Notes under the pieces: model-generated
Databases searched by the model: none
Told to the model about the DNA's origin: nothing
The model's input: only the letters and a program-made list of their open reading frames with translations
Made by a program: the position numbers and the translations under genes
Shown here: in pieces, positions 18,779 to 35,970 of the stretch
Position numbering within the stretch: position 1 is the stretch's first letter
How the letters are laid out: every line of letters starts with the position of its first letter
DNA from: Lawsonibacter sp.
Lineage (GTDB): Bacteria > Bacillota > Clostridia > Oscillospirales > Oscillospiraceae
Direction: 5' to 3'
Assembly (NCBI GenBank): GCA_022793355.1
Contig: JAAWCR010000111.1
Span: 1-35,970 of the forward strand
DNA: 35,970 nucleotides

Positions 18779-19666
18779 TTGGAAGTGTTGGAATTGCTGT
18801 CGGTCTATGAAGATTTTTTAAAAATTGAAAAACAGGCCTCAGCAAACACGGTCAGTTCCTATCTCCGCGACGTTCACCAGTTTGCCGAGGCTATGGACGG
18901 GAGAGGGGTTACCCTCACTCAGGTCATGACCCGGGATGTGGAGGAGTATGCCAACTCCCTGATTAAGCGGGGCAAGTCCCCGGCCACAGTGACCCGGTCG
19001 GTGGCCTCTATCAAATCGCTCTACGCCTGCCTGATCAACAAGGGCTACATGGATCAGAACCCGGCTAAGGGGGTGTCTCCGGCTAAGGTGGAGCGCAAGC
19101 TGCCCCAGGTGCTCACCGGGAAGGAGGTGGAGCTGTTTCTGGAGCAGCCTGAGTGTACCGACCTGAAGGGATACCGGGACCGGGCCATGCTGGAGCTGCT
19201 CTATGCCACCGGCATTCGGGTTAGCGAGCTTATTGAGCTGGATGTGGACGACCTGAATCTGCCTGGCGGCGTGCTCAAGTGCTATAGCAAAGGGAAGGAG
19301 CGCGTCATTCCCCTTTACCCTGCGGCCATTCGGGCACTGAGTGAGTACATAACCAATATCCGGCCCCAGCTGGTGGACTCGATCGATGAGACGGCGCTCT
19401 TTGTCAACATGAACGGCGAGCGCATGAGCCGTCAGGGCTTCTGGAAGCTGATCAAATATTATCAGGAGAAGGCGGGCATCCAAAAGGACATCACTCCCCA
19501 TACCCTTCGCCACTCCTTTGCTGCCCATCTGCTGGAAAATGGAGCGGATTTGCACTCCATTCAGGAAATGCTGGGCCATGCGGACATCTCCTCCACGCAG
19601 ATATACTCTAAGCTTATCAACCAGAAACTCAAGGACGTCTATAAAAAGGCTCACCCCAGGGCCTGA
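18779..19666 (+). CDS. xerD: Tyrosine recombinase XerD/RipX
   Basis: SANTVSSYLRD, RDRAMLELLYATGIRVSE, TPHTLRHSFAAHLLENGAD and MLGHADISSTQIY. Confidence 0.93.
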   Translation: MEVLELLSVYEDFLKIEKQASANTVSSYLRDVHQFAEAMDGRGVTLTQVMTRDVEEYANSLIKRGKSPATVTRSVASIKSLYACLINKGYMDQNPAKGVSPAKVERKLPQVLTGKEVELFLEQPECTDLKGYRDRAMLELLYATGIRVSELIELDVDDLNLPGGVLKCYSKGKERVIPLYPAAIRALSEYITNIRPQLVDSIDETALFVNMNGERMSRQGFWKLIKYYQEKAGIQKDITPHTLRHSFAAHLLENGADLHSIQEMLGHADISSTQIYSKLINQKLKDVYKKAHPRA

Positions 19667-27149: not shown

Positions 27150-28280
27150 ATGGAGAGAGCAAAGGTTTATTTTACCGATTTTCACACAGAGGCCTTTGGC
27201 GACAGCCTACCTACCAAACTGAAAAAGCTTATTTTGAAAGCGGGCATACAAGAGCTGGAGCTGGATGGCAAATTTGTGGCCATTAAAATGCACTTTGGTG
27301 AGCTGGGCAATATCAGCTATCTGCGGCCTAACTATGCCCGTGTGGTGGTGGACGTGGTCAAGGAGCTTGGGGGAAAGCCCTTCCTCACCGATTGCAACAC
27401 CATGTACCCCGGCAGCCGGAAGAACGCTCTGGAGCATCTGGAGTGTGCATGGCAAAATGGCTTTACACCCCTTACCGTAGGCTGCCCCATCCTGATTGGC
27501 GACGGCTTGAAGGGCACTGACGATGTGGAGGTCCCCGTGGAAGGCGGCGAGTATGTGGATAAGGCCAAAATCGGCCGGGCCGTGATGGATGCCGACGTTT
27601 TTATCAGCCTGACCCACTTTAAGGGACACGAAATGACTGGTTTTGGCGGGACAATTAAAAACATCGGAATGGGCTGCGGCTCACGGGCGGGGAAGAAGGA
27701 GCAACACGCCAGCGGCAAACCTAAAATCAGTCAGAAAAAGTGCCGGGGCTGCATGCGCTGTCAAAAGGAATGCGCGAACAGCGGACTGATATTTGATGAA
27801 CAGACCCGGAAAATGTGTGTGGATGATGCCCACTGTGTAGGCTGTGGCCGTTGTCTGGGAGCCTGTAATTTTGACGCTATCTATTTTGAAAACGACAACG
27901 CCCAAGCGGCGCTCAATTGTCGCATGGCGGAGTATACCAAGGCGGTAGTATCCGGCCGTCCTCAGTTCCACATCTCCTTGATTGTGGATGTATCCCCCAA
28001 CTGCGACTGTCACGCTGAAAACGATGTGCCCATCCTGCCCAATATTGGCATGTTTGCCTCGACCGACCCTCTGGCCCTGGATCAGGCCTGTGTGGATGCC
28101 TGTATGGCAGCCGAGCCCATGCCAGGCAGTCAGCTGGCCAAGCACCTGGCTGACCCGGAGTTCCACGACCACCACGATCACTTCACCAACTCCACCCCAG
28201 AGTCAGAGTGGCGCAGCTGCCTGGCCCACGCCGAGAAGATTGGTCTGGGCTCTCGGGAATATGAGCTGATTAAAATGTAA
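27150..28280 (+). CDS. DUF362-domain 4Fe-4S protein
   Basis: KMHFGE.GN, HFKGHE..GFGG.IKN.GMGC, two CxxCxxCxxxC clusters, CDC. Confidence 0.9.
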   Translation: MERAKVYFTDFHTEAFGDSLPTKLKKLILKAGIQELELDGKFVAIKMHFGELGNISYLRPNYARVVVDVVKELGGKPFLTDCNTMYPGSRKNALEHLECAWQNGFTPLTVGCPILIGDGLKGTDDVEVPVEGGEYVDKAKIGRAVMDADVFISLTHFKGHEMTGFGGTIKNIGMGCGSRAGKKEQHASGKPKISQKKCRGCMRCQKECANSGLIFDEQTRKMCVDDAHCVGCGRCLGACNFDAIYFENDNAQAALNCRMAEYTKAVVSGRPQFHISLIVDVSPNCDCHAENDVPILPNIGMFASTDPLALDQACVDACMAAEPMPGSQLAKHLADPEFHDHHDHFTNSTPESEWRSCLAHAEKIGLGSREYELIKM

Positions 28281-28319
28281 AGGGGAATAGCCTGTCAGTA
28301 AATCCTCATGAAAAACAGA

Positions 28320-28349
28320 GGACACCGCAAGTTTTTGCGGTGTCCTTTT
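28320..28349. terminator. Bidirectional terminator between convergent genes
   Basis: GGACACCGCAA ... TTGCGGTGTCC followed by TTTT. Confidence 0.8.
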
Positions 28350-28371
28350 CTTGTCTATCCAACAATGTGCT

Positions 28372-28737
28372 TCACTTCTTTTTTCCACTATCCTCCTCTG
28401 TGAAGGTATTTTTCAGCAACAAGTCTATCATAAATACCGACACGCAAAACAGCACCATCTGACCTATGATAAGCCATAGCCAAATGGAGGCGTAATTCGC
28501 CTGAAAGAGGACCATTAAAAAAGCGCTGGCTCCACCGCTGATGACCCCGATACGCACCCATAATCTGGCACAGTGGTGATGGGCCGCCATCCAGGCATCC
28601 GGGTCCTTTCGGGTTAGTTCTGTGTTGTAGGCCAATCCGGTGGACTGATAGGGGGGAGGTGAAATTTTCCACAGCAGCCCCACAAGCAGCATAGCAGCTG
28701 GAGACAGCATGACGACAATAAAATATGGGATATACAT
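28372..28737 (-). CDS. SdpI-like small membrane protein
   Basis: Three TM helices; P...GLAYNT....DPDAW.AAH resembles the SdpI motif GYRT..W..AH. Confidence 0.7.
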   Translation of the reverse strand: MYIPYFIVVMLSPAAMLLVGLLWKISPPPYQSTGLAYNTELTRKDPDAWMAAHHHCARLWVRIGVISGGASAFLMVLFQANYASIWLWLIIGQMVLFCVSVFMIDLLLKNTFTEEDSGKKK

Positions 28738-28761
28738 CTGCCTGCCTCACTTTCTGGTGAA

Positions 28762-29757
28762 TCACTGAGAATCCGGCTCTTTTTCCGGCTTTTTTTTCTG
28801 GCGCACACGGCTTAGCGGATTGGCCCGGGCGGCAGTACGCAAATCCTCGTTGTCCACATGGGTGTAAATTTGGGTGGTGTTCAGGTGGTCGTGGCCCAGC
28901 ACCTCCTGAAGGGTGCGTACATCCACACCGTTCTGGAGCATCAGGGTGGCGGCGGTGTGTCGCAGCTTGTGGGAGGAGTATTGGCTGCTGTCCAGTCCGG
29001 CTGCGGCCAGATGCTTTTTGACCAGCTTGTGGACCGCAGCCGTAGAGATACGCCTCCGGTTCTGAAGGGTAACAAAGAGGGCGTTTTGGTCTACCAGCGT
29101 CAAGGAATCCCGTTCAGTGAGCCAGTTCTCCAGCGCCCGCTGACAGGCGTCGTTGAGATACAGCATTCGCTCCTTGTTACCCTTGCCCAGCACTCGGAGC
29201 TGATCGCCCCGAACATCTGTTTTGTTCAACCCTACCAGTTCAGAAATACGTAGACCGCAATTGAGGAACAGTGCCAGAATGCAATAGTCCCGGCTGAAGT
29301 TTTTACCGTCAACACTGTCCAAAAGCTCCAAACTTTCTTCTAAATTCAGATATTTGGGTAAGGATTTTTTCAATCTGGGCGAATCCAAGTCCTGGACCGG
29401 GTTGACTTCAAGTAGCTTGGCCTTATTGGTAAGATACTTGTAGAACGACCGGATAGTGGCAACTTTGCGGGCTCGCGAGGTGTTGTTCAGCCCACGGTCT
29501 CGAGACAGATAGTTCATATAGGAATAGATATCCGTCAGTGTGATATTTCGGGCCAGATCCAAGTCAACGTCGGCGATGGAGATATCATCCAGCGGAACAT
29601 CCTTGGAAACCAACTGTTTACTCTGCTTGAGGTAGCGGAAAAAATTCCGGAGGTCTAAATAGTATTCGTCAACCGTCCGCCGTGAGTGACCTTGGATGGT
29701 CTCATGGTAAACAAGGAAATCCCGAAGGATAGGCGGTGCTTCCGTACGGTAGTCCAT
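28762..29757 (-). CDS. Chromosomal Xer-family tyrosine recombinase (clostridial XerC/XerS-like)
   Basis: LRDFLVYHETIQGHS..TVDEYYLDLR, RDYCILALFLNCGLRISEL, GKGNKER, HKLRHTAAT and LGH...NTTQIY. Confidence 0.9.
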   Translation of the reverse strand: MDYRTEAPPILRDFLVYHETIQGHSRRTVDEYYLDLRNFFRYLKQSKQLVSKDVPLDDISIADVDLDLARNITLTDIYSYMNYLSRDRGLNNTSRARKVATIRSFYKYLTNKAKLLEVNPVQDLDSPRLKKSLPKYLNLEESLELLDSVDGKNFSRDYCILALFLNCGLRISELVGLNKTDVRGDQLRVLGKGNKERMLYLNDACQRALENWLTERDSLTLVDQNALFVTLQNRRRISTAAVHKLVKKHLAAAGLDSSQYSSHKLRHTAATLMLQNGVDVRTLQEVLGHDHLNTTQIYTHVDNEDLRTAARANPLSRVRQKKKPEKEPDSQ

Positions 29758-29808
29758 ATAAGGTAAATGGCTTGTCAGACGCAAAATGAGTGGTTCTACC
29801 TCCACTCA

Positions 29809-29836
29809 GGTCAACAAAATTTTTATTTTGTTGACC
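29809..29836. other. Palindromic 11-6-11 dif-like recombination site (candidate attL)
   Basis: GGTCAACAAAA-TTTTTA-TTTTGTTGACC has perfect inverted arms (extendable with TCA/TGA) and lies ~50 bp upstream of the xer gene. Confidence 0.7.
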
Positions 29837-29948
29837 TGACATAATGCGCTAATCTGAGTGCCATCGTTCCTCCCCTCTGCTTTCGCAGTAATTTGGAACT
29901 AAGTATAGCACGCTTTTCCCGTCAGGTCAACAAAACATGAAGTTACCG
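29826..29948. repeat. Direct repeat copy 1 (~123 bp) containing a sigma-A promoter facing xer
   Basis: Aligns by hand to 35708-35829 at 93/123 identity. Minus-strand TTGACC (29925-29930)-N17-TATACT (29902-29907). Confidence 0.85.
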
Positions 29949-30797
29949 TTACCGACTTCGACACCGTTTTACCTTCCGAATTAGTTTCCGCCAAAACCTC
30001 ACCAGGATGAATGGCCGCCGTGGAGCTGCCAGGACGGCTAGTTCCCGCTGGCGGACCCGCAGCACCGAGATCATATCCAGCACCAGGGCTTTTTTCAGCT
30101 CTTGGTCATCCTCGGCGGCGACGCCGTTCCCCGGGGCCCCACCGCTTGCGCGGTTCCCCCCGGCACAGACATCGCCGCCTGCGGTGACCATATCTGAAAA
30201 CAGCTTGTAGCTATCATAGACCTCAGCGTAACGTTTCCGGTACGGGAAAACTGTCTGCCCCAGCTTCAGGCGATTCCCACCGTACCAGTATTGAATGGCA
30301 ATAAACCAAGTACGCCCCAATGTGAGTAAGGACAGCATGCCACCTCCAAAGCCGTAATTGTTCAGCTTGCGGTGTTTTATCTCCTCCTCCACCAGTGATC
30401 TAATCTGCCGGTCCAGCATCCGGTCGGACTGCGTGATTAAGATCACGTTGAAGCCCAGCTTGCGGTGCTGGGCAAAGAAAGTTACCCAGGCGTTGCGGTC
30501 CTTCCGTCCGAAGTCCCGGCAGTTAAAGATGATCTGGCACTCGTCTATCACCACCAGCGTCTGGCCTTCTTTTCCGATCTTATGCCGGTCCAGTGCATAG
30601 GCCACCAGACGCTCCGCCGTCAGCTCCGAGTTGTCCCAATACTCCACATGGGCTTTCAGCTTCTTTCCGACAAAACCTTCATTGACCGGGAAATTGCAGA
30701 TCAGTCCCCTATCCCGCTTCATCCACCGGACGATATCTTTTGCCGCATGAAAACTCTTACCGCTGCCGGGAGTACCGGTATACAGTTGGATACTCAT
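29949..30797 (-). CDS. Zot/pI-like morphogenesis ATPase
   Basis: IQLYTGTPGSGKSFHA (Walker A), LVVIDECQ (Walker B) and QHRKLGFNVILITQ..LDRQIR. Confidence 0.92.
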   Translation of the reverse strand: MSIQLYTGTPGSGKSFHAAKDIVRWMKRDRGLICNFPVNEGFVGKKLKAHVEYWDNSELTAERLVAYALDRHKIGKEGQTLVVIDECQIIFNCRDFGRKDRNAWVTFFAQHRKLGFNVILITQSDRMLDRQIRSLVEEEIKHRKLNNYGFGGGMLSLLTLGRTWFIAIQYWYGGNRLKLGQTVFPYRKRYAEVYDSYKLFSDMVTAGGDVCAGGNRASGGAPGNGVAAEDDQELKKALVLDMISVLRVRQRELAVLAAPRRPFILVRFWRKLIRKVKRCRSR

Positions 30798-31036
30798 TCT
30801 ATCACCTTCACCCAGCGGAACACGATCTGGTACACATAATAGACCGCCACGCAGGACAGCCAAGTTTCCAGGATACCCACAAAGGTGTTGATAGGGATAA
30901 ACCAGTTCACCATTTGCAGCCACTCGTAAAACTCCGAGCTGGCCATGTCGTCCAGGATCACGAAGGGACTGGTGGGAAACAGCTCCACCACGCCTACCGC
31001 GAAGGACACCAGGGCGTCAGACAGCACGTCCCACAT
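30794..31036 (-). CDS. pVI-like minor virion protein
   Basis: Hydrophobic 80 aa with FPTSPF..VNWFIP..RWVKVIE; ATGA-coupled to Zot. Confidence 0.75.
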   Translation of the reverse strand: MWDVLSDALVSFAVGVVELFPTSPFVILDDMASSEFYEWLQMVNWFIPINTFVGILETWLSCVAVYYVYQIVFRWVKVIE

Positions 31037-31054
31037 GTAAAGCCCCTCCCCTGT

Positions 31055-32386
31055 TCACGCCGTCCATATCAGGCGTTTGGTGGCCCCGACCAGCATCAGG
31101 CAGAAGCCTATGGTGCTTGTCCACCGGCTGATCTGGCCGATGATTGCGTACTCAGCAAAATCCAACACAATGGTTGTATCACCCTGCCACTCCCCTACTC
31201 TGTGTTCTATCGGCTGCATAAAGTCCACCTTGAACCGTGGAGCTTTCGCCGGTGCGGCCAGGAGCTGTACAGCCCTGAAAAAGTCCCAGGGGATGGAGAA
31301 AGGGAAACGGCTTATCAGCGCCTGTCCCAGAGCGGGTAAGCCCAGGTTGTCTACATCGGTTATCTCCCCCGCTGGCGGGTCTACCACAGCCTCTCCCGCA
31401 ACTTCCATGGTTGACGTCAGCTCACCGGCCAGCACATCCTCCAGCACCCCTTGAAGAACCAGGTCAAGGTCCATCGTCGCCGCTGCGCCTACGTCCAGCG
31501 CTATCCCCTGTTCTGCTGCTATGCCATCTGGAATATAGGACATGGAAGGAGCACGGTCAATGGAAAGGGATTCATCAGATGAGACTACAGCACCAAAATT
31601 AAAGTCACGCAGAGAAACAGCAGAACAATACTTGAAAACCCCATTAGAATCCCAAAACAGAAAAAGAGTATCATCATAAAAAGAAAAGCAAAAATTAGTG
31701 GCCCCCCAAAATTTATTACCGGTAATTTTAGTGCCCTGAGGATTAAAAAAAGCAACCCAATAGGAAGAATCACCTGCTGGGTCATTAGCAAAATAATAAC
31801 CACTAGAGAAAACGATTGGAGAATCAATAGGAAAATGAAAAATTGTTCCTAGAGAAACAACAGTAGAATTATTGCCATTATAATTCATTGAAGAAAGGTA
31901 CAATTTGCTACCATCTTTCAATGTAATATAATCATCAGCATCATAATAAACTCGATTCTCCCCCGCCTGCGCCGCATACTTCCCCACAACCCACTGTGCA
32001 AAGGAAACAAATTCCTCGGTAAGGGACCGCCCCAGGAGGAGCTTTCCCGCCATAACTGTGAGGTCCCAAACGCCGCCCAGCCAGTCCTGGATGGAGATAC
32101 CGCCAAGTTCCGTGTCAAGGAATTCCTGAAGCAGCCGCTGCACAGAGCTGACCAGGGCATCCTTGTCCATCCCCTTTGTGATAAACGGCAGGCCGCAGGC
32201 TCCCAGGTAAGCCGCCGCCACCGAGGCCACAGCGGTCATGGACAGCTCCGCCACCAGGGCCTCCGCCCTTTGCTGGGGGAGCATCAAGCCCAGCACCAGC
32301 GAGAAGCACACCAGCCAGCAGCCCAGCCGCATGAGCAGCTTGTCCCGCCGGGCGGCGAGGAACCGTATTACCAGATTCATTTCCAT
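31055..32386 (-). CDS. pIII-like attachment/minor coat protein
   Basis: Signal peptide (..RAEA), C-terminal RFPFSIPWD motif and TM anchor; lies between the coat gene and pVI. Confidence 0.78.
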   Translation of the reverse strand: MEMNLVIRFLAARRDKLLMRLGCWLVCFSLVLGLMLPQQRAEALVAELSMTAVASVAAAYLGACGLPFITKGMDKDALVSSVQRLLQEFLDTELGGISIQDWLGGVWDLTVMAGKLLLGRSLTEEFVSFAQWVVGKYAAQAGENRVYYDADDYITLKDGSKLYLSSMNYNGNNSTVVSLGTIFHFPIDSPIVFSSGYYFANDPAGDSSYWVAFFNPQGTKITGNKFWGATNFCFSFYDDTLFLFWDSNGVFKYCSAVSLRDFNFGAVVSSDESLSIDRAPSMSYIPDGIAAEQGIALDVGAAATMDLDLVLQGVLEDVLAGELTSTMEVAGEAVVDPPAGEITDVDNLGLPALGQALISRFPFSIPWDFFRAVQLLAAPAKAPRFKVDFMQPIEHRVGEWQGDTTIVLDFAEYAIIGQISRWTSTIGFCLMLVGATKRLIWTA

Positions 32387-32400
32387 ACCTCCCTATGAAG

Positions 32401-32424
32401 TGAGCCCCGGAGAACCGGGGCTCA
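32401..32424 (-). terminator. Hairpin after the major coat gene
   Basis: TGAGCCCCGG-AGAA-CCGGGGCTCA between the coat gene and pIII, as in Ff phages. Confidence 0.65.
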
Positions 32425-32435
32425 TTTGCGCTGTG

Positions 32436-32717
32436 TTACTGACCCATGGATTTAAACCAGCTCATAGCCTTCCGGGACAGCCAGATCACGCCGGCCACAC
32501 CGACGGCAATGGGCACGATCACGGCAATCATGCTCATGGCGTCTGACGCCATGCTCTGGAAACCGCTCTGGAACGCCGAGATCACCGTGGCGGACGTGCC
32601 AGAAGCACCAGACGACGCACCCTCAGCCGCAAAAGCGGAGATGCACATAACCGACAAGATCATAGACACTCCCAACAGCACAGCCAGCCGTTTCTTGATA
32701 GACTTCATCCTTTTCAC
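32436..32717 (-). CDS. Major coat protein (pVIII-like)
   Basis: Signal peptide ending SAFA|AEG, amphipathic segment, one TM (IAVIVPIAVGVAGVIWL) and basic C-terminus SRKAMSWFKSMGQ. Confidence 0.85.
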   Translation of the reverse strand: MKRMKSIKKRLAVLLGVSMILSVMCISAFAAEGASSGASGTSATVISAFQSGFQSMASDAMSMIAVIVPIAVGVAGVIWLSRKAMSWFKSMGQ

Positions 32718-32878
32718 CTCCCCATGATTTTAATCAATGCCTTAAAGCAGCCGACCAAAAGACCAGCCGCCAGGACAACGAAACAGGCGGATGTCATGCC
32801 TATCACCAGGACCTCGGGCACGGCATCCAGAATATCCAGGCTGATTGTGTACAGCTCTGCTACTTCCAAAAACTCCAT
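32714..32878 (-). CDS. Small TM protein (pVII/pIX-like)
   Basis: 54 aa with an acidic N-terminus, a single TM and basic end; overlaps the coat gene start. Confidence 0.65.
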   Translation of the reverse strand: MEFLEVAELYTISLDILDAVPEVLVIGMTSACFVVLAAGLLVGCFKALIKIMGR

Positions 32879-32879
32879 A

Positions 32880-33107
32880 CTACACCTGCCATATCCGGGA
32901 GAACATAAAACCAATTGCGCAGCCTAACACTACGCCAATGAGTAGCACAACAGCCAGAAACACTAGGCTGACGTCAGCATGAAGCTGTTCTAATCCGCAG
33001 TTGGCTTTGTCCAAGGACTGCTGCATAACTTCCAAGGCCTCCAACACCGGTGTCAGGTCTGTTGGTGATACCAGGGTTTCATAGATCACGCTGCCGCTCT
33101 CCTCCAT
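32880..33107 (-). CDS. Small TM protein (pVII/pIX-like)
   Basis: AAGGAGG RBS; 75 aa with a coiled segment and C-terminal TM. Confidence 0.65.
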   Translation of the reverse strand: MEESGSVIYETLVSPTDLTPVLEALEVMQQSLDKANCGLEQLHADVSLVFLAVVLLIGVVLGCAIGFMFSRIWQV

Positions 33108-33975
33108 GGGCCTCTCCTCCTTCCAGCCACCCACTGATGGTTGTTTGCTCTATCTCTGCATTGGACAACAGTACCGGGATGTCCTCCGGATACTCCAACG
33201 GGGGCAGCTCACCGTCTACCGGGATGTATTCCATCCAAAAGGACCAATCTACATCCCGTACCCAGCCGGTGGAACAGAATGTGCCATCATGCTCCAAATA
33301 GGCATCCAGGCTTGCATAGGATTGATACACATATCCCATGGGCATGGCACGGGCCAGGCCGATGGAGCAGCGGTACATATGTACCCCATAGTCCGAAACA
33401 CACCGGGCCAGGTCCTTCGACACATACTTGGTGATATACCCCGCTGCAAGCTCCGGGTCCTTGATATAGGCCAGGGAGCAGAAACCGAATTTTTTCTGAT
33501 ACTCCGGCCAATTCAGATAACCTTTGGCTACCAGGTCTTGGGGTTCCAGGCCAGGGATGAACAGGCGCAGCCGGTCTTGCGGGATACCCTTGACAAAGCC
33601 GTGGATATGCCACGCTCCATCCTCATGGAGCTCCGGGACAAACAGGTATTGGAGGTTGCAACCGTATTTCTTCCGGTAATCCCGCAGCCATTGGGTGAAG
33701 GACTTATAAAATTCCTTCAGGTGGTAACGATTATATTTAGCTGGGTCTATGGTGCCAGTAAAGAAAAAGTCCCAATCATTGCAGAAAGCCACCTGGAAGA
33801 TCACCGACCGGGCCCGGCAGATCGCCTGGGAAAGTTTTTCCTCCGGAGTGCCCTCCCCTTCCTCACGTTTGGGTGGCAGATGGGGAAACAGCGCCCGCTT
33901 GAACCGGATAAGCTCATACACGCCATCCCTGTAAAACTTGACCGAATATCTTGGAGCCAGTACGCCAGACATCAT
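33079..33975 (-). CDS. HUH rolling-circle replication initiator
   Basis: Motif I FFTGT, motif II ELHEDGAWHIHG, motif III YITKYVSK. Confidence 0.9.
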   Translation of the reverse strand: MMSGVLAPRYSVKFYRDGVYELIRFKRALFPHLPPKREEGEGTPEEKLSQAICRARSVIFQVAFCNDWDFFFTGTIDPAKYNRYHLKEFYKSFTQWLRDYRKKYGCNLQYLFVPELHEDGAWHIHGFVKGIPQDRLRLFIPGLEPQDLVAKGYLNWPEYQKKFGFCSLAYIKDPELAAGYITKYVSKDLARCVSDYGVHMYRCSIGLARAMPMGYVYQSYASLDAYLEHDGTFCSTGWVRDVDWSFWMEYIPVDGELPPLEYPEDIPVLLSNAEIEQTTISGWLEGGEAHGGERQRDL

Positions 33976-34159
33976 TTTTTATGCCCCTTCCCGACTTACG
34001 TTACCTTGTCAAGTGCCCTCGTCGGTAACCCCTGCGGCTACCGAAAAAGGCACTAAACTCTGCGTGGGGAAAGGGACGTCTCCCGACGTGCCTGTACTTT
34101 GTAACACAACGGAGGCGGCGGAGCGGAGCTGATCAACGACGCTGCCATGCTAAGCTGTG

Positions 34160-34468
34160 TTACGGTTTCTTCCGCTGGAACATGTACTTGGGGACCTCTA
34201 CCCCCTGCTCCCGGCACAGGTCGATCAGGAGGTTGTTCAGATAAGACTCATCTGCAAAGAGATTTTCGGCTTTTATACGGATTGCCTTCTCCGCCTCCAG
34301 CTCGCTTTCCAGCAGCCGGACACGGTTTTTTAGGACCTGAACCTCCACCGTATCGCAGACGCTGACCGAGAGCTCCAACCGCCCCTCCCCTACCCTCTCC
34401 AACACTTTGGACAGAGCCGGGACCAGGGACGTAAACTCAGACCGGGACAATGTCTGCGACACGTCCAT
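34160..34468 (-). CDS. Phage hypothetical coiled-coil protein
   Basis: ORF between SSB and Rep; heptad pattern LKNRVRLLESELEAEK. The start is uncertain. Confidence 0.55.
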   Translation of the reverse strand: MDVSQTLSRSEFTSLVPALSKVLERVGEGRLELSVSVCDTVEVQVLKNRVRLLESELEAEKAIRIKAENLFADESYLNNLLIDLCREQGVEVPKYMFQRKKP

Positions 34469-34673
34469 ACTTGTTGTACCGAATCTCGCACTGGTTGCCA
34501 ATCTCAGGCATAAAGGTCAAATTCATAAACCGGTTGGAGCTTATGAAAACGCGATCTGTTGCCTCGCCGTCAACCTCTGGGTCCTCATACGTGAAGTACA
34601 GATTCATTCCATTGACCTGCGCACCATCGGAGCCCTTGAAATCTACGTTCTTTGTTCCTACAAGTGTGTACAT
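34437..34673 (-). CDS. pV-like single-stranded DNA-binding protein
   Basis: AAAGGAG RBS; 78-aa beta-rich MYTLVGTKNVDFKGSDG..NG..LY..YNKYGRV; size and position match. Confidence 0.65.
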   Translation of the reverse strand: MYTLVGTKNVDFKGSDGAQVNGMNLYFTYEDPEVDGEATDRVFISSNRFMNLTFMPEIGNQCEIRYNKYGRVADIVPV

Positions 34674-34692
34674 GAATACCGCTCCTTTCTTT

Positions 34693-34899
34693 TTATTTAT
34701 CTTCACCCTCAAAGGGATTAGACACCGAAACATCAGGAAGAATTTTGTCCATAAGGTGAAAGATAAACTTTCCTCTAGACCAACAAGCTTAACGGGCCAG
34801 TTCATCTAACCGTTCCCGCATCTCCACCGGACAGTTAAAAGACACCGAGCACCATTTAGGAGAAGATTCACATTCATCTACTTTCAGAACAAACGGCAT
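34693..34899 (-). pseudogene. Ribbon-helix-helix regulator with an in-frame TAA
   Basis: GGGAGG RBS; MPFVLKVDECESSPKWCSVSFNCPVEMRERLDELAR*ACWSRGKFIFHLMDKILPDVSVSNPFEGEDK; stop at 34789-34791. Confidence 0.6.
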
Positions 34900-34985
34900 C
34901 TATATACCCTCCCTTTAAATTCGGGGGAGAGGCAAGGAAGATATAAGCAGCCCCTCCCCCATGCCCTAGTGCCAACCCGGGCAGC

Positions 34986-35062
34986 AACAGACCTATAAGT
35001 CTGTTACTTAATCAAAACTATAACAGACTTATAGGTCCGCTGTCAAGAGGGACTTATAAGTC
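34986..35062. promoter_or_regulatory. Phage switch: three palindromic operators and a leftward sigma-A promoter
   Basis: GACCTATAAGTC (34990-35001), GACTTATAGGTC (35026-35037), GACTTATAAGTC (35051-35062); minus-strand TTGACA (35041-35046)-N18-TATAGT (35017-35022). Confidence 0.8.
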
Positions 35063-35094
35063 CTATGGTAAATTTATTCTGAGGTGACTTTACA

Positions 35095-35313
35095 ATGAAC
35101 ATTGGTGATAGGCTAAAAGACACGAGGATCGACCACGATCATGAACAGAAAGACACCGCAGAAATATTACAAATATCGGAAAAGCAAGTTATGCGCTACG
35201 AGAAGGACCGCCAAGAAATGGGCATAAGAAAACTAAGAGATTTTTGTCTTTACTACCAAGTTTCCGCCGACTACATTCTAGGCCTCCCCCGTGGCCTGGA
35301 CTGGCCACGGTGA
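35095..35313 (+). CDS. XRE-family HTH prophage repressor
   Basis: RLKDTRID...Q..AEILQIS..QVMRYE...L.DFCLYYQVSADYILG; divergent from the phage operon. Confidence 0.88.
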   Translation: MNIGDRLKDTRIDHDHEQKDTAEILQISEKQVMRYEKDRQEMGIRKLRDFCLYYQVSADYILGLPRGLDWPR

Positions 35314-35599
35314 ACCATCGCCAGCGGGCGGGACGGTGGATTCTGTTTTGAAGGGTGCCCCCTGGCCAGCTGGGCCCGACTGCAAACCCGGACCCTCGCT
35401 CTGATGGGCGACCGGCTGCGGGTATCGGGGGCTGTCTTGATGCGACCCGGACCTATGGGTCCTCTCGCATATTACCTCTGCCCCTTGCTTGCGCCGAAAC
35501 CAACCCGCAAGGGGACTTGCAAAAAGATACCTTCAGTAAGCCAGATCGGCCCAGGCCTACCAGGTAATCGCGCAAGACAACTGTCATTTCCATGCAAAA

Positions 35600-35718
35600 C
35601 GGGGAGCGATCACCGCTCCCCGCTTCTCTTTCAAAAGTTATAGAAAAGGCATCGTGTGCGCCAGCACACGCAACAAAACCTAAAAATATTGGTACAATAT
35701 TTTTAGGTTTTGTTGACC
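35600..35718. repeat. Three consecutive hairpins ending in the candidate attR
   Basis: CGGGGAGCG/CGCTCCCCG (35600-35622), CGTGTGC/GCACACG (35653-35670) and a perfect 21-bp inverted repeat 35671-35691/35695-35715 that overlaps the arm TTTTGTTGACC (35708-35718). Confidence 0.8.
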
Positions 35719-35829
35719 TAGTAGCGTACACTATTCTGCGGAAAGCCTGTCCTCCTTCCTGCTTTCGCAGTAGTTTTGAACCAGTATAGCACGGTTTCCC
35801 CGGCAGGTCAACAAAACATGATTTTACCG
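35708..35829. repeat. Direct repeat copy 2 (probable original host xer promoter)
   Basis: Minus-strand TTGACC (35806-35811)-N17-TATACT (35783-35788); homologous to 29826-29948. Confidence 0.85.
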
Positions 35830-35970
35830 CACGGAAATCAATTTTGCAAAATTGGATTCAAAGAGATAAAATAGGAAATATGAGAAAGAACATAGTAGAA
35901 TATTTTGATGAAGTAGAAACAAGGCGGGAATACAAGGGATATTTTTGTAGTATTCCAGAAGCAATCAGCA
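35830..35970 (+). mobile_element. Left end of a probable ISAs1-family IS with partial transposase (ATG 35880)
   Basis: MRKNIVEYFDEVETRREYKGYFCSIPEAIS.. resembles the N-terminus of clostridial ISAs1-type transposases; candidate terminal repeat CACGGAAATCAATTTTGC at 35830; AT-rich; truncated by the window end. Confidence 0.55.

Follow-up and report, generated by a model that had tools for sequence, protein, structure and literature searches.

An inovirus prophage in a likely dif site carries a predicted promoter that may serve the adjacent host xer gene

Gene content of the locus

We analyzed a stretch of 35,970 nucleotides from Lawsonibacter sp. (GenBank assembly GCA_022793355.1, contig JAAWCR010000111.1, positions 1 to 35,970 of the forward strand), called the window below. 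It contains a 5.9-kb element that is an inovirus without an integrase, located at a likely dif site just before an xer gene (Table 1). The element has the traits of Inoviridae: a pI/Zot ATPase, a rolling-circle initiator and a length within the range of 4-12 kb. Its Zot protein is 87.5% identical to a protein of PQ006161 and 84.5% identical to one of PQ006170. The virion-type genes matched no Pfam or PHROG family and are 44-73% identical to unnamed ORFs of two Inoviridae records. No integrase was found among 10 phage ORFs compared with Pfam or 8 compared with PHROGs. A search of IMG/VR returned only distant relatives, with no close Zot and no dif.

Table 1. Features of the xer-prophage region, with positions in the window
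Feature	Position	Strand	Remarks
xer-type tyrosine recombinase gene, host	28762..29757	-	331 aa from ATG; Pfam Phage_integrase + SAM_1
Purine box GAGTGGAGG	29799..29807	-	adjoins dif arm
Intact dif-like site	29809..29836	.	intergenic; 11-bp arm, 6-bp core, 11-bp arm; perfect dyad
Copy 1, phage-borne end segment	29826..29948	-	same segment 3' of zot in G347, G508, L153
Hairpin and upstream purine box	29867..29888	-	CTGC-GAAA-GCAG hairpin 29877-29888; box 29867-29878
Predicted sigma-A promoter	29902..29930	-	TTGACC-N17-TATACT with TG; aimed across dif toward xer
pI/Zot-family morphogenesis ATPase gene	29949..30797	-	282 aa; PF05707 E 3e-20; phrog_1675 M13 pI E 7.5e-17
Virion-type genes	30794..33134	-	80, 443, 93, 66, 84 aa; by size, order, likeness to free inovirus genomes
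Rolling-circle replication initiator gene	33079..33975	-	298 aa; PF23343 E 2.6e-11; phrog_3419
Small HTH repressor-like gene	35095..35313	+	72 aa; RstR-like, below cut-off
Two terminator-like hairpins	35600..35670		35600-35622 plus, 35653-35670 minus
Perfect 21-bp hairpin	35671..35715	.	3-nt loop; partial arm, CC, dif core, 5 bp of second arm
Copy 2, displaced resident segment; likely end of an earlier phage	35708..35829	-	same promoter motif at 35811-35783
Left end of multi-copy insertion sequence	35830..35970	+	truncates copy 2, ends contig

The xer gene belongs to the host and is not carried along with the phage. Orthologue-level matches in 37 of 41 relatives rule it out as the phage's own integrase; the earlier note had named an xer that travels with the phage genes as an outcome that would speak against its proposal. 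The reading frame stays open from a GTG at 29805. The protein scored below the cut-off of each of four Xer models in NCBIfam: XerS (142.8, cut-off 267), XerC (229, cut-off 335), XerD (212, cut-off 330) and XerA (200, cut-off 220). The perfect dyad of the dif-like site suggests that one recombinase suffices, yet the same host also encodes a separate XerD above cut-off (18779-19666), so either recombinase may be the one that acts.

The dif-like site is a 28-bp palindrome 50 nt upstream of xer. Among 112 genomes of the genus, 93 contain it with at most three mismatches; 88 of the 93 have a single copy, and 73 have the exact 26-mer. A reversed-pattern control gave 0 matches. Relative to dnaA, the palindrome lies at 48-53% of the chromosome in four closed genomes (1.808 of ~3.6 Mb in G014, 1.79 of 3.7 Mb in G009, 1.43 of 2.72 Mb in G312 and 1.146 of 2.2 Mb in G033). 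A further genome, G442 (7 contigs, 39% from dnaA), was left out of this test as unusable. The breadth of occurrence and the position opposite dnaA make it likely that 29809-29836 is the chromosomal dif, the site for chromosome unlinking. In all loci listed, xer follows this site. The purine box that adjoins the dif arm stays at dif also in loci with dif inverted with respect to xer. An upstream purine box, as at 29867-29878, is found in 72 of 93 genomes at a distance of 20-52 nt from dif, and two free phage circles have one as well. When the purine box was tried as a KOPS in G014, 28 of 41 copies were on the leading strand and 12 of 41 fell within 1.76-1.99 Mb.

The earlier note had placed the phage target between xer and its promoter. 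The genus survey agrees with this placement, as a promoter lies between dif and xer in only 3 of 93 genomes, each time a weak one. No promoter scoring at least 10 was found upstream of dif in 51 of the 93, so xer may need little transcription. Where radA is adjacent, a promoter is present upstream of dif in 6 of 34 hosts, and in 0 of 17 in a second genus (at least 30 loci from 49 matching genomes, with 4 of 30 dropped for having no xer or no dif upstream). A terminator follows radA in 4 of the 6 radA-adjacent hosts with the promoter versus 1 of the 28 without it. RNA-library contigs from two studies extend from xer across its leader and into dif, a weak observation as DNA may be present. The ends of RNA contigs X15 and X19, at 29828 and 29827, were rejected as a transcription start: DNA contigs also break at 29826-29838, so these ends reflect a graph break at the palindrome. 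RNA contigs from four runs left zot uncovered, which strain or depth may explain.

Direct repeats at the two ends of the prophage

Two collinear direct repeats, copy 1 and copy 2, bracket the prophage. They are identical at 93 of 123 columns with one gap, as the earlier note had counted by hand, and their alignment score of 152 compares with 7.7 +/- 9.1 (maximum 41) in 1000 shuffles. An identity of 76% rules out an att core or a target-site duplication as their source, which upholds the same judgment in the note. Each copy has the 11-bp arm at its left end, CTGCGAAAGCAG on the minus strand (at 29877 and 35759) and the predicted promoter with an extended -10 (TG). The promoter part is 86% identical between the copies and the 34 nt from purine box to arm 56%, in line with the contrast first described between a conserved arm, hairpin and promoter and a drifted stretch between arm and hairpin. 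A second arm copy encloses the -35 hexamer (29925-29935 in copy 1, 35806-35816 in copy 2). Copy 1 abuts the zot stop codon (29949-29951), as had been observed, and from there runs through a spacer, the second arm with the -35, the promoter, the hairpin and the purine box to the dif arm. Transcription from its promoter is predicted to start at ~29895. A 13-codon frame inside copy 1 is not conserved across the aligned segments, and an Rfam search of 28000-35970 gave no match. We also considered an invertible promoter, given the inverted arms that flank it, and rejected it: no flipped form occurs in the loci listed, and no such joint is among those listed.

The ends of the element differ, with an intact dif at the xer side and an altered dif-like relic, the 21-bp hairpin, at the far side. 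The left arm of copy 2 continues into this hairpin (fold z -9.6). Of 401 genomes in the family, two have the hairpin and both carry a prophage; L172 has it too, and G347 shows a compensatory change in it. The hairpin is likely the relic of a folded attP, and the dif at the xer end was likely regenerated at integration. The core in the hairpin starts with CC, which would not pair with the host core as in a CTX-type exchange; L172 has TG at this place. Both terminator-like hairpins would insulate the phage end, and they recur in G347 and L172 with some bases changed. An empty site or circle junction of this strain was absent from the joints listed (15 of 19) in four DNA runs, where contigs can show presence only.

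Promoters at the ends of related elements

In four of four close prophages that reach xer, copy-1-type DNA lies 3' of zot. Copy 1 is thus phage-borne, as the earlier note had supposed. G347 and L153 have near-identical xer genes and differing tails. We scored promoters within 200 nt upstream of dif at 19 element ends, which include kin and hence are not independent counts: 14 scored at least 10 and 18 at least 9. As background, a score of at least 10 occurred in 5 of 227 windows from phage interiors and in 33 of 1500 windows taken at random. The count leaves out G298 and G312 (dif inverted relative to xer), L167 (motif not matched) and elements not reaching xer (G051, G416, G440, G274, G011:C167 and metagenome fragments). 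Strong promoter-bearing ends span about four lineages, and two of these have the promoter built into the final codons of a phage gene; the G457 prophage end has no promoter (score 7). The free circles PQ006161 and PQ006170 have promoters scoring 10 and 9, followed by the box, the arm and a CTX-like hairpin attP, and the next annotated gene is on the other strand. A promoter at this place in other element lineages and in two free circular inoviruses supports the proposal of the note. We did not find a free circle of this exact zot-end type, and neither copy 1 nor the Oscillibacter-type tail had a match in the phage collection searched.

All six phage-type segments retain the -35, the 17-nt spacing, the TG and the -10 intact, with an identity of only 38-74% to either copy in the neighbouring 34 nt. 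Decayed prophages retain this tail as well (G508, G493, G509, G055 and G438); in G493, ~100 nt of the phage rep end are left behind a host gene, and these are the promoter-bearing part. As far as sequence can tell, copy 1 likely keeps xer switched on, and several other elements inserted here likely sustain xer through their ends in the same way.

Tails do recombine, since L153 has the same 34 nt before dif as the prophage-free genomes G016, G491 and G511. Such exchange would also be expected of neutral hitch-hiking, with tails swapped among tandem elements and hosts and xer either fed by phage-operon read-through or needing almost no transcription. zot is co-directional with xer, so read-through could serve it, and the G457 end lacks a promoter, as do half of the genomes. 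We nevertheless consider hitch-hiking very improbable: the promoter elements are intact in all six phage-type segments despite the divergence of the adjoining 34 nt, and different gene ends yield promoters at the same place.

Copy 1 might instead be retained for the phage's own use, as a single-strand origin or a hairpin for packaging, as an additional Xer arm of attP, or as a promoter that acts antisense to the repressor in the circle, with xer expression as a by-product. Single-stranded copy 1 folds into a 15-bp stem in which the -35 arm pairs with the dif arm (z -5.3), and conservation of the purine box extends to loci that lack a promoter. The next annotated gene past attP is on the opposite strand in both PQ006161 and PQ006170 and is a repressor in one of them. 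RNA-polymerase-primed origins with -35 and -10 boxes are known in Ff phages. The 15-bp stem, however, shows no compensatory change among the six phage-type segments, the arm is missing from other lineages in which the promoter is present, and the terminator-like hairpins come after the attP hairpin. The promoter part alone persists in the replication-dead remnants G508 and G493, and we regard retention for phage use as improbable.

Origin of copy 2 and the insertion sequence

Copy 2 had been taken for the host's ancestral promoter, and this claim was not supported. In the 18 nt upstream of the -35, copy 2 shares 12-16 positions with four phage ends and 2-11 with 16 host-type segments. Its best matches in the genus are G021, G508, copy 1 and G347. 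The far sides of the G509, G055, G438 and L143 prophages are earlier phage ends, and among the far sides seen there was no clear host-native homologue of the incoming tail. Copy 2 is the displaced resident promoter segment and was likely left behind as a scar when an earlier phage from the same group decayed.

In an unlikely alternative, this host lineage had copy 2 as its native promoter, the phage once captured it, and copy 1 is a diverged version with the function unchanged. The zot-free genome G021, with no phage-like gene upstream, matches both copies (89/111 and 88/108), is the best match to copy 2 (17/18) and shares upstream synteny with contigs C123, C8 and C4 of the genome studied here. 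A promoter at -86 to -100 is also present in sixteen further zot-free genomes, mostly TTGAC-N17-TATACT. However, the G021 segment resembles the zot ends in opening with TGA and a spacer of 20 nt, as expected of a scar, and the four far sides named above are ends of earlier phages. The nearest hosts by ligA (82%) have other promoters or none, with G021 (78%) and G508 (77%) more distant. Copy 2 resembles phage ends and not these nearest hosts. Trees of the segment lacked resolution (p-AU 0.085 and 0.127), as largely did those of xer and ligA.

Copy 2 stops exactly where an insertion sequence, possibly ISAs1-like, starts (35829/35830), so its right limit here was made by the insertion sequence and need not be its natural extent. 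Read depth rises from 8-18 to 85-332 in the insertion sequence, and other flanks also join at 35829/35830. A match to its inverted repeat on contig C160 is another copy. No matching flank that would continue copy 2 past the insertion sequence was found among the contig ends.

Discussion

We consider it fairly probable that the inovirus occupies a likely dif site that it likely entered through a host Xer, that copy 1 likely feeds xer, and that copy 2 is likely the end of an earlier phage. The course of events would begin with a host xer with a single-copy palindrome 50 nt upstream and opposite dnaA. Transcription of xer would cross dif, from ancestral radA read-through or from a promoter upstream of dif. 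The anatomy of the ends suggests that a folded single-stranded attP then recombined by one crossover at the arm/core border, so that dif was regenerated on the xer side and the hairpin stayed at the other end. This would sever xer from everything upstream, with terminators at the far end of the phage. The phage tail landing before dif, which reads as promoter, purine box and arm, could compensate for the loss. Relatives indicate that decay of the prophage would leave the tail; because the tail outlasts decay, later arrivals would displace a promoter left by an earlier phage.

More tentatively, dif placed between xer and its source of transcription may act as a host guard that inoviruses and small satellites of Oscillospiraceae have beaten repeatedly and independently by means of promoter ends. 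In many species the xer promoter might then be a domesticated phage scar, replaced by each arrival. If so, chromosome dimer resolution would run on phage-supplied promoters, and an element would sustain the host enzyme on which it depends. The locus gives a dominant gut family a candidate dif system linked to xer. It also points to candidate inoviruses of Firmicutes that exploit Xer, whose free circular relatives are in GenBank, and to a candidate site for neutral integration in organisms where genetic tools are few.

We compared the locus with known systems. As described for CTXphi (PMC5357621), an integrase-less filamentous phage sits at dif with an intact dif at one end and a non-functional relic at the other, uses a folded single-stranded attP and forms tandem arrays with other elements. 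The relatives L045, PQ006161 and PQ006170 have the two-site, long-loop attP fold of CTXphi. The attP of CTXphi has two inverted sites ~90 nt apart, whereas the hairpin here has a 21-bp stem, a 3-nt loop and a partial second arm. The host here is a Firmicute with a perfect-palindrome dif beside xer. In Vibrio, xerC/D lie far from dif, so the CTXphi-type IMEX of Vibrio cholerae has no promoter to replace.

In the XerS/difSL system of streptococci and lactococci, dif likewise lies directly upstream of its xer at the terminus (PMC1914069). Le Bourgeois et al. proposed in 2007 that dif between xer and its promoter might block insertions by separating the two (PMC1914069). Our literature search returned no demonstration of this proposal. 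The present locus is a natural test of it: insertions are common here and bring promoters, with a junction promoter motif at 18 of 19 element ends. It differs from XerS/difSL in its Xer, far below the XerS cut-off, in its 28-bp perfect dyad, which is not difSL, and in a host that also has XerD. XerL/dif and LME-1 of Legionella resemble our system in their symmetric dif arms and in an exploiting element that leaves one intact and one altered site (PMC9765430). Unlike here, xerL lies >400 kb from dif and LME-1 has a 22-bp identical att core; as far as the account in PMC9765430 goes, LME-1 is not shown as an inovirus.

Bajarodino virus 34 and 24 (PQ006161 and PQ006170), both circular Inoviridae, share the virion gene block and the order of promoter, box, arm and hairpin at attP. 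They differ in a long-loop attP and in another rep, which adjoins attP, and their records annotate no attP or promoter. Replacement promoters are already known: the ends of SXT at prfC and IMEVchUSA3 at dusA give a severed host gene a new promoter (10.1101/2021.06.18.448947, PMC4482086), and at the level of motifs the element end here faces its severed gene in the same way. In our literature search we found no published replacement promoter serving the exploited recombinase, which would be the new aspect. SXT and IMEVchUSA3, as described there, integrate by an integrase of their own and provide a housekeeping gene with a replacement 5' coding end. At the xer locus, in contrast, the crossover lies upstream of the start codon and the frame stays as it was, and the phage likely exploits the same recombinase whose gene it would serve.

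The xer-linked dif-like site

Coordinates of the features discussed are collected in the table. The xer gene has an orthologue-level match in 37 of 41 relatives, and the four others are assemblies that are 70-89% complete. Its protein scores under the cut-offs for XerC, XerD, XerA and XerS, and a true XerD gene is present in the same genome. Fifty bases 5' of xer lies a 28-bp palindrome. Of 112 genomes in the genus, 93 have a match to it, a single one in 88 of them; the control gave zero matches. In four closed genomes it sits 48-53% of the chromosome away from dnaA. The palindrome satisfies every sequence criterion for dif, and we infer that it is active.

Features of the window
Feature	Position	Remark
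True XerD gene	18779-19666	
xer	28762-29757	
Purine boxes	29799-29807, 29867-29878	flank dif in the same orientation
dif-like palindrome	29809-29836	
Copy 1 of the repeat	29826-29948	
zot stop codon	29949-29951	
Phage	29826-35707	
Inverted repeat	34985-35042	22 nt; between leftward phage genes and repressor
Strong promoter motif	35046-35017	overlaps the inverted repeat
Far-end hairpin	35671-35715	perfect, 21 bp
Copy 2 of the repeat	35708-35829	

Both purine boxes accompany dif where it is inverted relative to xer (loci L021 and L043). At three loci of other genera (L021, L026, L137), a promoter motif lies between dif and xer, with its -35 box within the dif arm in two of them. This arrangement suggests that Xer regulates its own gene. 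A degenerate second dif-like site occurs within the 3' end of a gene downstream of tyrS (G000:C115:2802-2831, locus L248), and genomes G009, G403 and G513 have comparable sites. In several relatives tyrS is found 5' of the main dif instead, a hint that the two sites have taken part in rearrangements with each other. G009 also has a second exact dif core beside an integrase-like match (C1:537214-537231), 137 kb from its xer-linked dif.

The repeated segments

The earlier note described two long direct repeats, and alignment bears this out: 93 identities in 123 columns with one gap, scoring 152 against 7.7 +/- 9.1 for shuffled sequences. Both copies contain the dif arm, a CTGC-GAAA-GCAG hairpin and, on the minus strand, the promoter motif TTGACC-N17-TATACT. 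Three features had been overlooked. The -35 box sits within another copy of the arm; in copy 2 the arm continues into the far-end hairpin; and copy 2 breaks off precisely where a multi-copy IS starts. The IS runs to the end of the contig, all of which is the window. In four DNA sequencing runs of mouse gut, from four studies, depth is 8-18 before the IS and 85-332 within it, and the junction at 35829/35830 is shared with other flanks; one of these may be where the window's DNA came from.

The prophage and its probable attachment site

The phage encodes a pI/Zot ATPase, a rolling-circle initiator, a small repressor and virion-type genes; no integrase gene was found between its ends. The inverted repeat beside the repressor gene is likely the repressor's operator. 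We found Zot relatives in 11 of 401 genomes of the family and 5 of 112 of the genus, and the close relatives, with duplicated loci counted once, mostly adjoin xer. At one locus (L167:900-1031), a Zot relative lies beside a xer gene whose palindrome is different, and a promoter motif stands between that palindrome and xer.

Two of the 401 genomes, both phage carriers, have the far-end hairpin, and that of G347 shows a compensatory change. Relatives such as L045 have the long-loop two-site fold at attP that a review describes for CTXphi (PMC5357621). If attP is folded, a single crossover where arm meets core would leave a relic hairpin at the far end and an intact dif next to xer. This model has one difficulty: the core of the window's hairpin begins with CC, which would fail to pair with that of the host. 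At L172:2288-2340 a hairpin variant has TG-AAAAAA in place of CC-TAAAAA and is joined to a Rep_trans-type phage end, a junction that shows, at the level of sequence, that phage types mix. The TG variant is possibly the active form. Because the CC core would not pair and L172 has TG there, the window's perfect palindromic hairpin may be a later, corrected form.

Predicted promoters at element ends

The core idea of the earlier note was that the phage supplies a promoter for xer. Predicted promoters in several lineages match this idea at the sequence level. Copy 1 is phage-borne: copy-1-like DNA follows zot in all four close prophages that reach xer (the window's, G347, G508 and L153). G347 and L153 have near-identical xer genes and different tails, the terminal phage DNA before dif. 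The promoter score counts matches to TTGACA and TATAAT, with one added for TG and a half subtracted where spacing was not 17. Among 19 element ends upstream of dif, which represent about four lineages rather than 19 independent trials, 14 scored at least 10 and 18 at least 9; a score of at least 10 was reached by 5 of 227 windows from phage interiors and by 33 of 1500 random ones. These ends include four of the zot-end type, eight from other genera with the promoter at the end of the last gene, the Rep_trans end of G509 and five from small integrase-bearing elements. The exception, G457, scored 7.

Two free circular Inoviridae records, PQ006161 and PQ006170 (Zot 87.5% and 84.5% identical), have the same order, with a promoter motif (scoring 10 and 9), then purine box, dif arm and a hairpin attP. 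In both, the gene annotated next lies on the opposite strand. Both belong to the Rep-end type; no free circle with the zot end seen in the window was found.

The small elements at this site (L131 in G022, L089 in G471, L099, L110 and L112) are likely satellites. They lie 2.5-2.9 kb upstream of dif and carry a catalytic-domain-only tyrosine recombinase of 171-178 aa together with a rep-like frame; 60-80 nt ahead of the true dif they have a degenerate one.

Origin of copy 2

Copy 2 is, as a motif, the displaced resident promoter, because it stood before dif up to the most recent integration. Transcription from it would be halted by terminator-like hairpins at the end of the phage. The earlier note took copy 2 for the host's own promoter, which now appears less likely than a scar, the promoter-bearing remnant of an earlier phage. 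Over the 18 nt upstream of the -35 box, copy 2 shares 16, 15, 14 and 12 positions with four phage ends and 2-11 with 16 host-type segments. The hosts closest by ligA have different promoters or none.

At this site, the far side of a prophage is often the end of an earlier phage. About 100 nt of the last gene is repeated there in G055 and G438, an older rep end in G509 comes with a promoter of its own, and L143 and G347 hold tandem phages. Remnants keep the predicted promoter even when short: all that is left in G508 is the tail with the 3' part of zot, and in G493 a piece of a rep end of about 100 nt (75%, E 1e-14). The promoter spacers of G009 and G513, identical to that of a free phage at 14 of 17 positions, may be even shorter scars. 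G021 is a counter-case: it lacks zot, yet matches copy 2 at 17 of 18 positions and has synteny in common with the window genome. Its segment may be a scar or the donor. Trees do not decide the origin of copy 2; we favor a phage scar.

Possible sources of xer transcription

A predicted promoter lies upstream of dif in 42 of 93 genomes and between dif and xer in 3, where even those are weak. The most frequent upstream neighbor is radA (34 of 93 genomes, from 108 of 155 candidate frames scanned). Promoters occur in 6 of the 34 radA-adjacent genomes, and a second genus has them in 0 of 17. Downstream of radA, a terminator-like hairpin is present in 4 of the 6 with a promoter versus 1 of the 28 without. 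This pattern fits radA read-through as the ancestral source of xer transcription, with promoters found where read-through is cut. Between radA and dif, a short conserved Cys-rich frame lies on the opposite strand (L013, L012, L103, L252-L281).

Half of the genomes have no promoter, which counts against a need for one, and read-through from zot could supply xer instead. RNA-library contigs from two studies extend from xer into dif, as a transcript across dif would, but they stop at the same place as DNA contigs and do not give a start site.

Comparison with known systems

Replacement promoters are known from other integrating elements. One was measured for IMEVchUSA3 at dusA (10.1101/2021.06.18.448947), and that paper and PMC4482086 cite another for SXT at prfC. 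In Legionella, a Xer-exploiting element (IMEX) uses a symmetric single-recombinase dif with xerL far from dif (PMC9765430). Inoviruses of gut Firmicutes are known from Enterocloster, in a paper that does not use the word Xer (PMC10061712). The difSL-xerS layout was proposed as a possible block to insertion, as insertions would part xerS from its promoter (PMC1914069). The accessible portions of PMC3025954, PMC6212727 and 10.64898/2026.07.08.737213 contain nothing on the present dif site. A literature search at the level of listings, in a library with few subscription papers, returned neither a description of this dif nor a case in which an element brings a promoter for the recombinase that it exploits.

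The repeated promoter motif is real, and we propose its functions. The element resembles a CTX-type IMEX combined with the promoter restoring of SXT and the dusA islands, although it lacks one defining feature of the former and one of the latter. Unlike the replacement promoters of SXT and IMEVchUSA3, this one would serve what is likely the recombinase that the element exploits.
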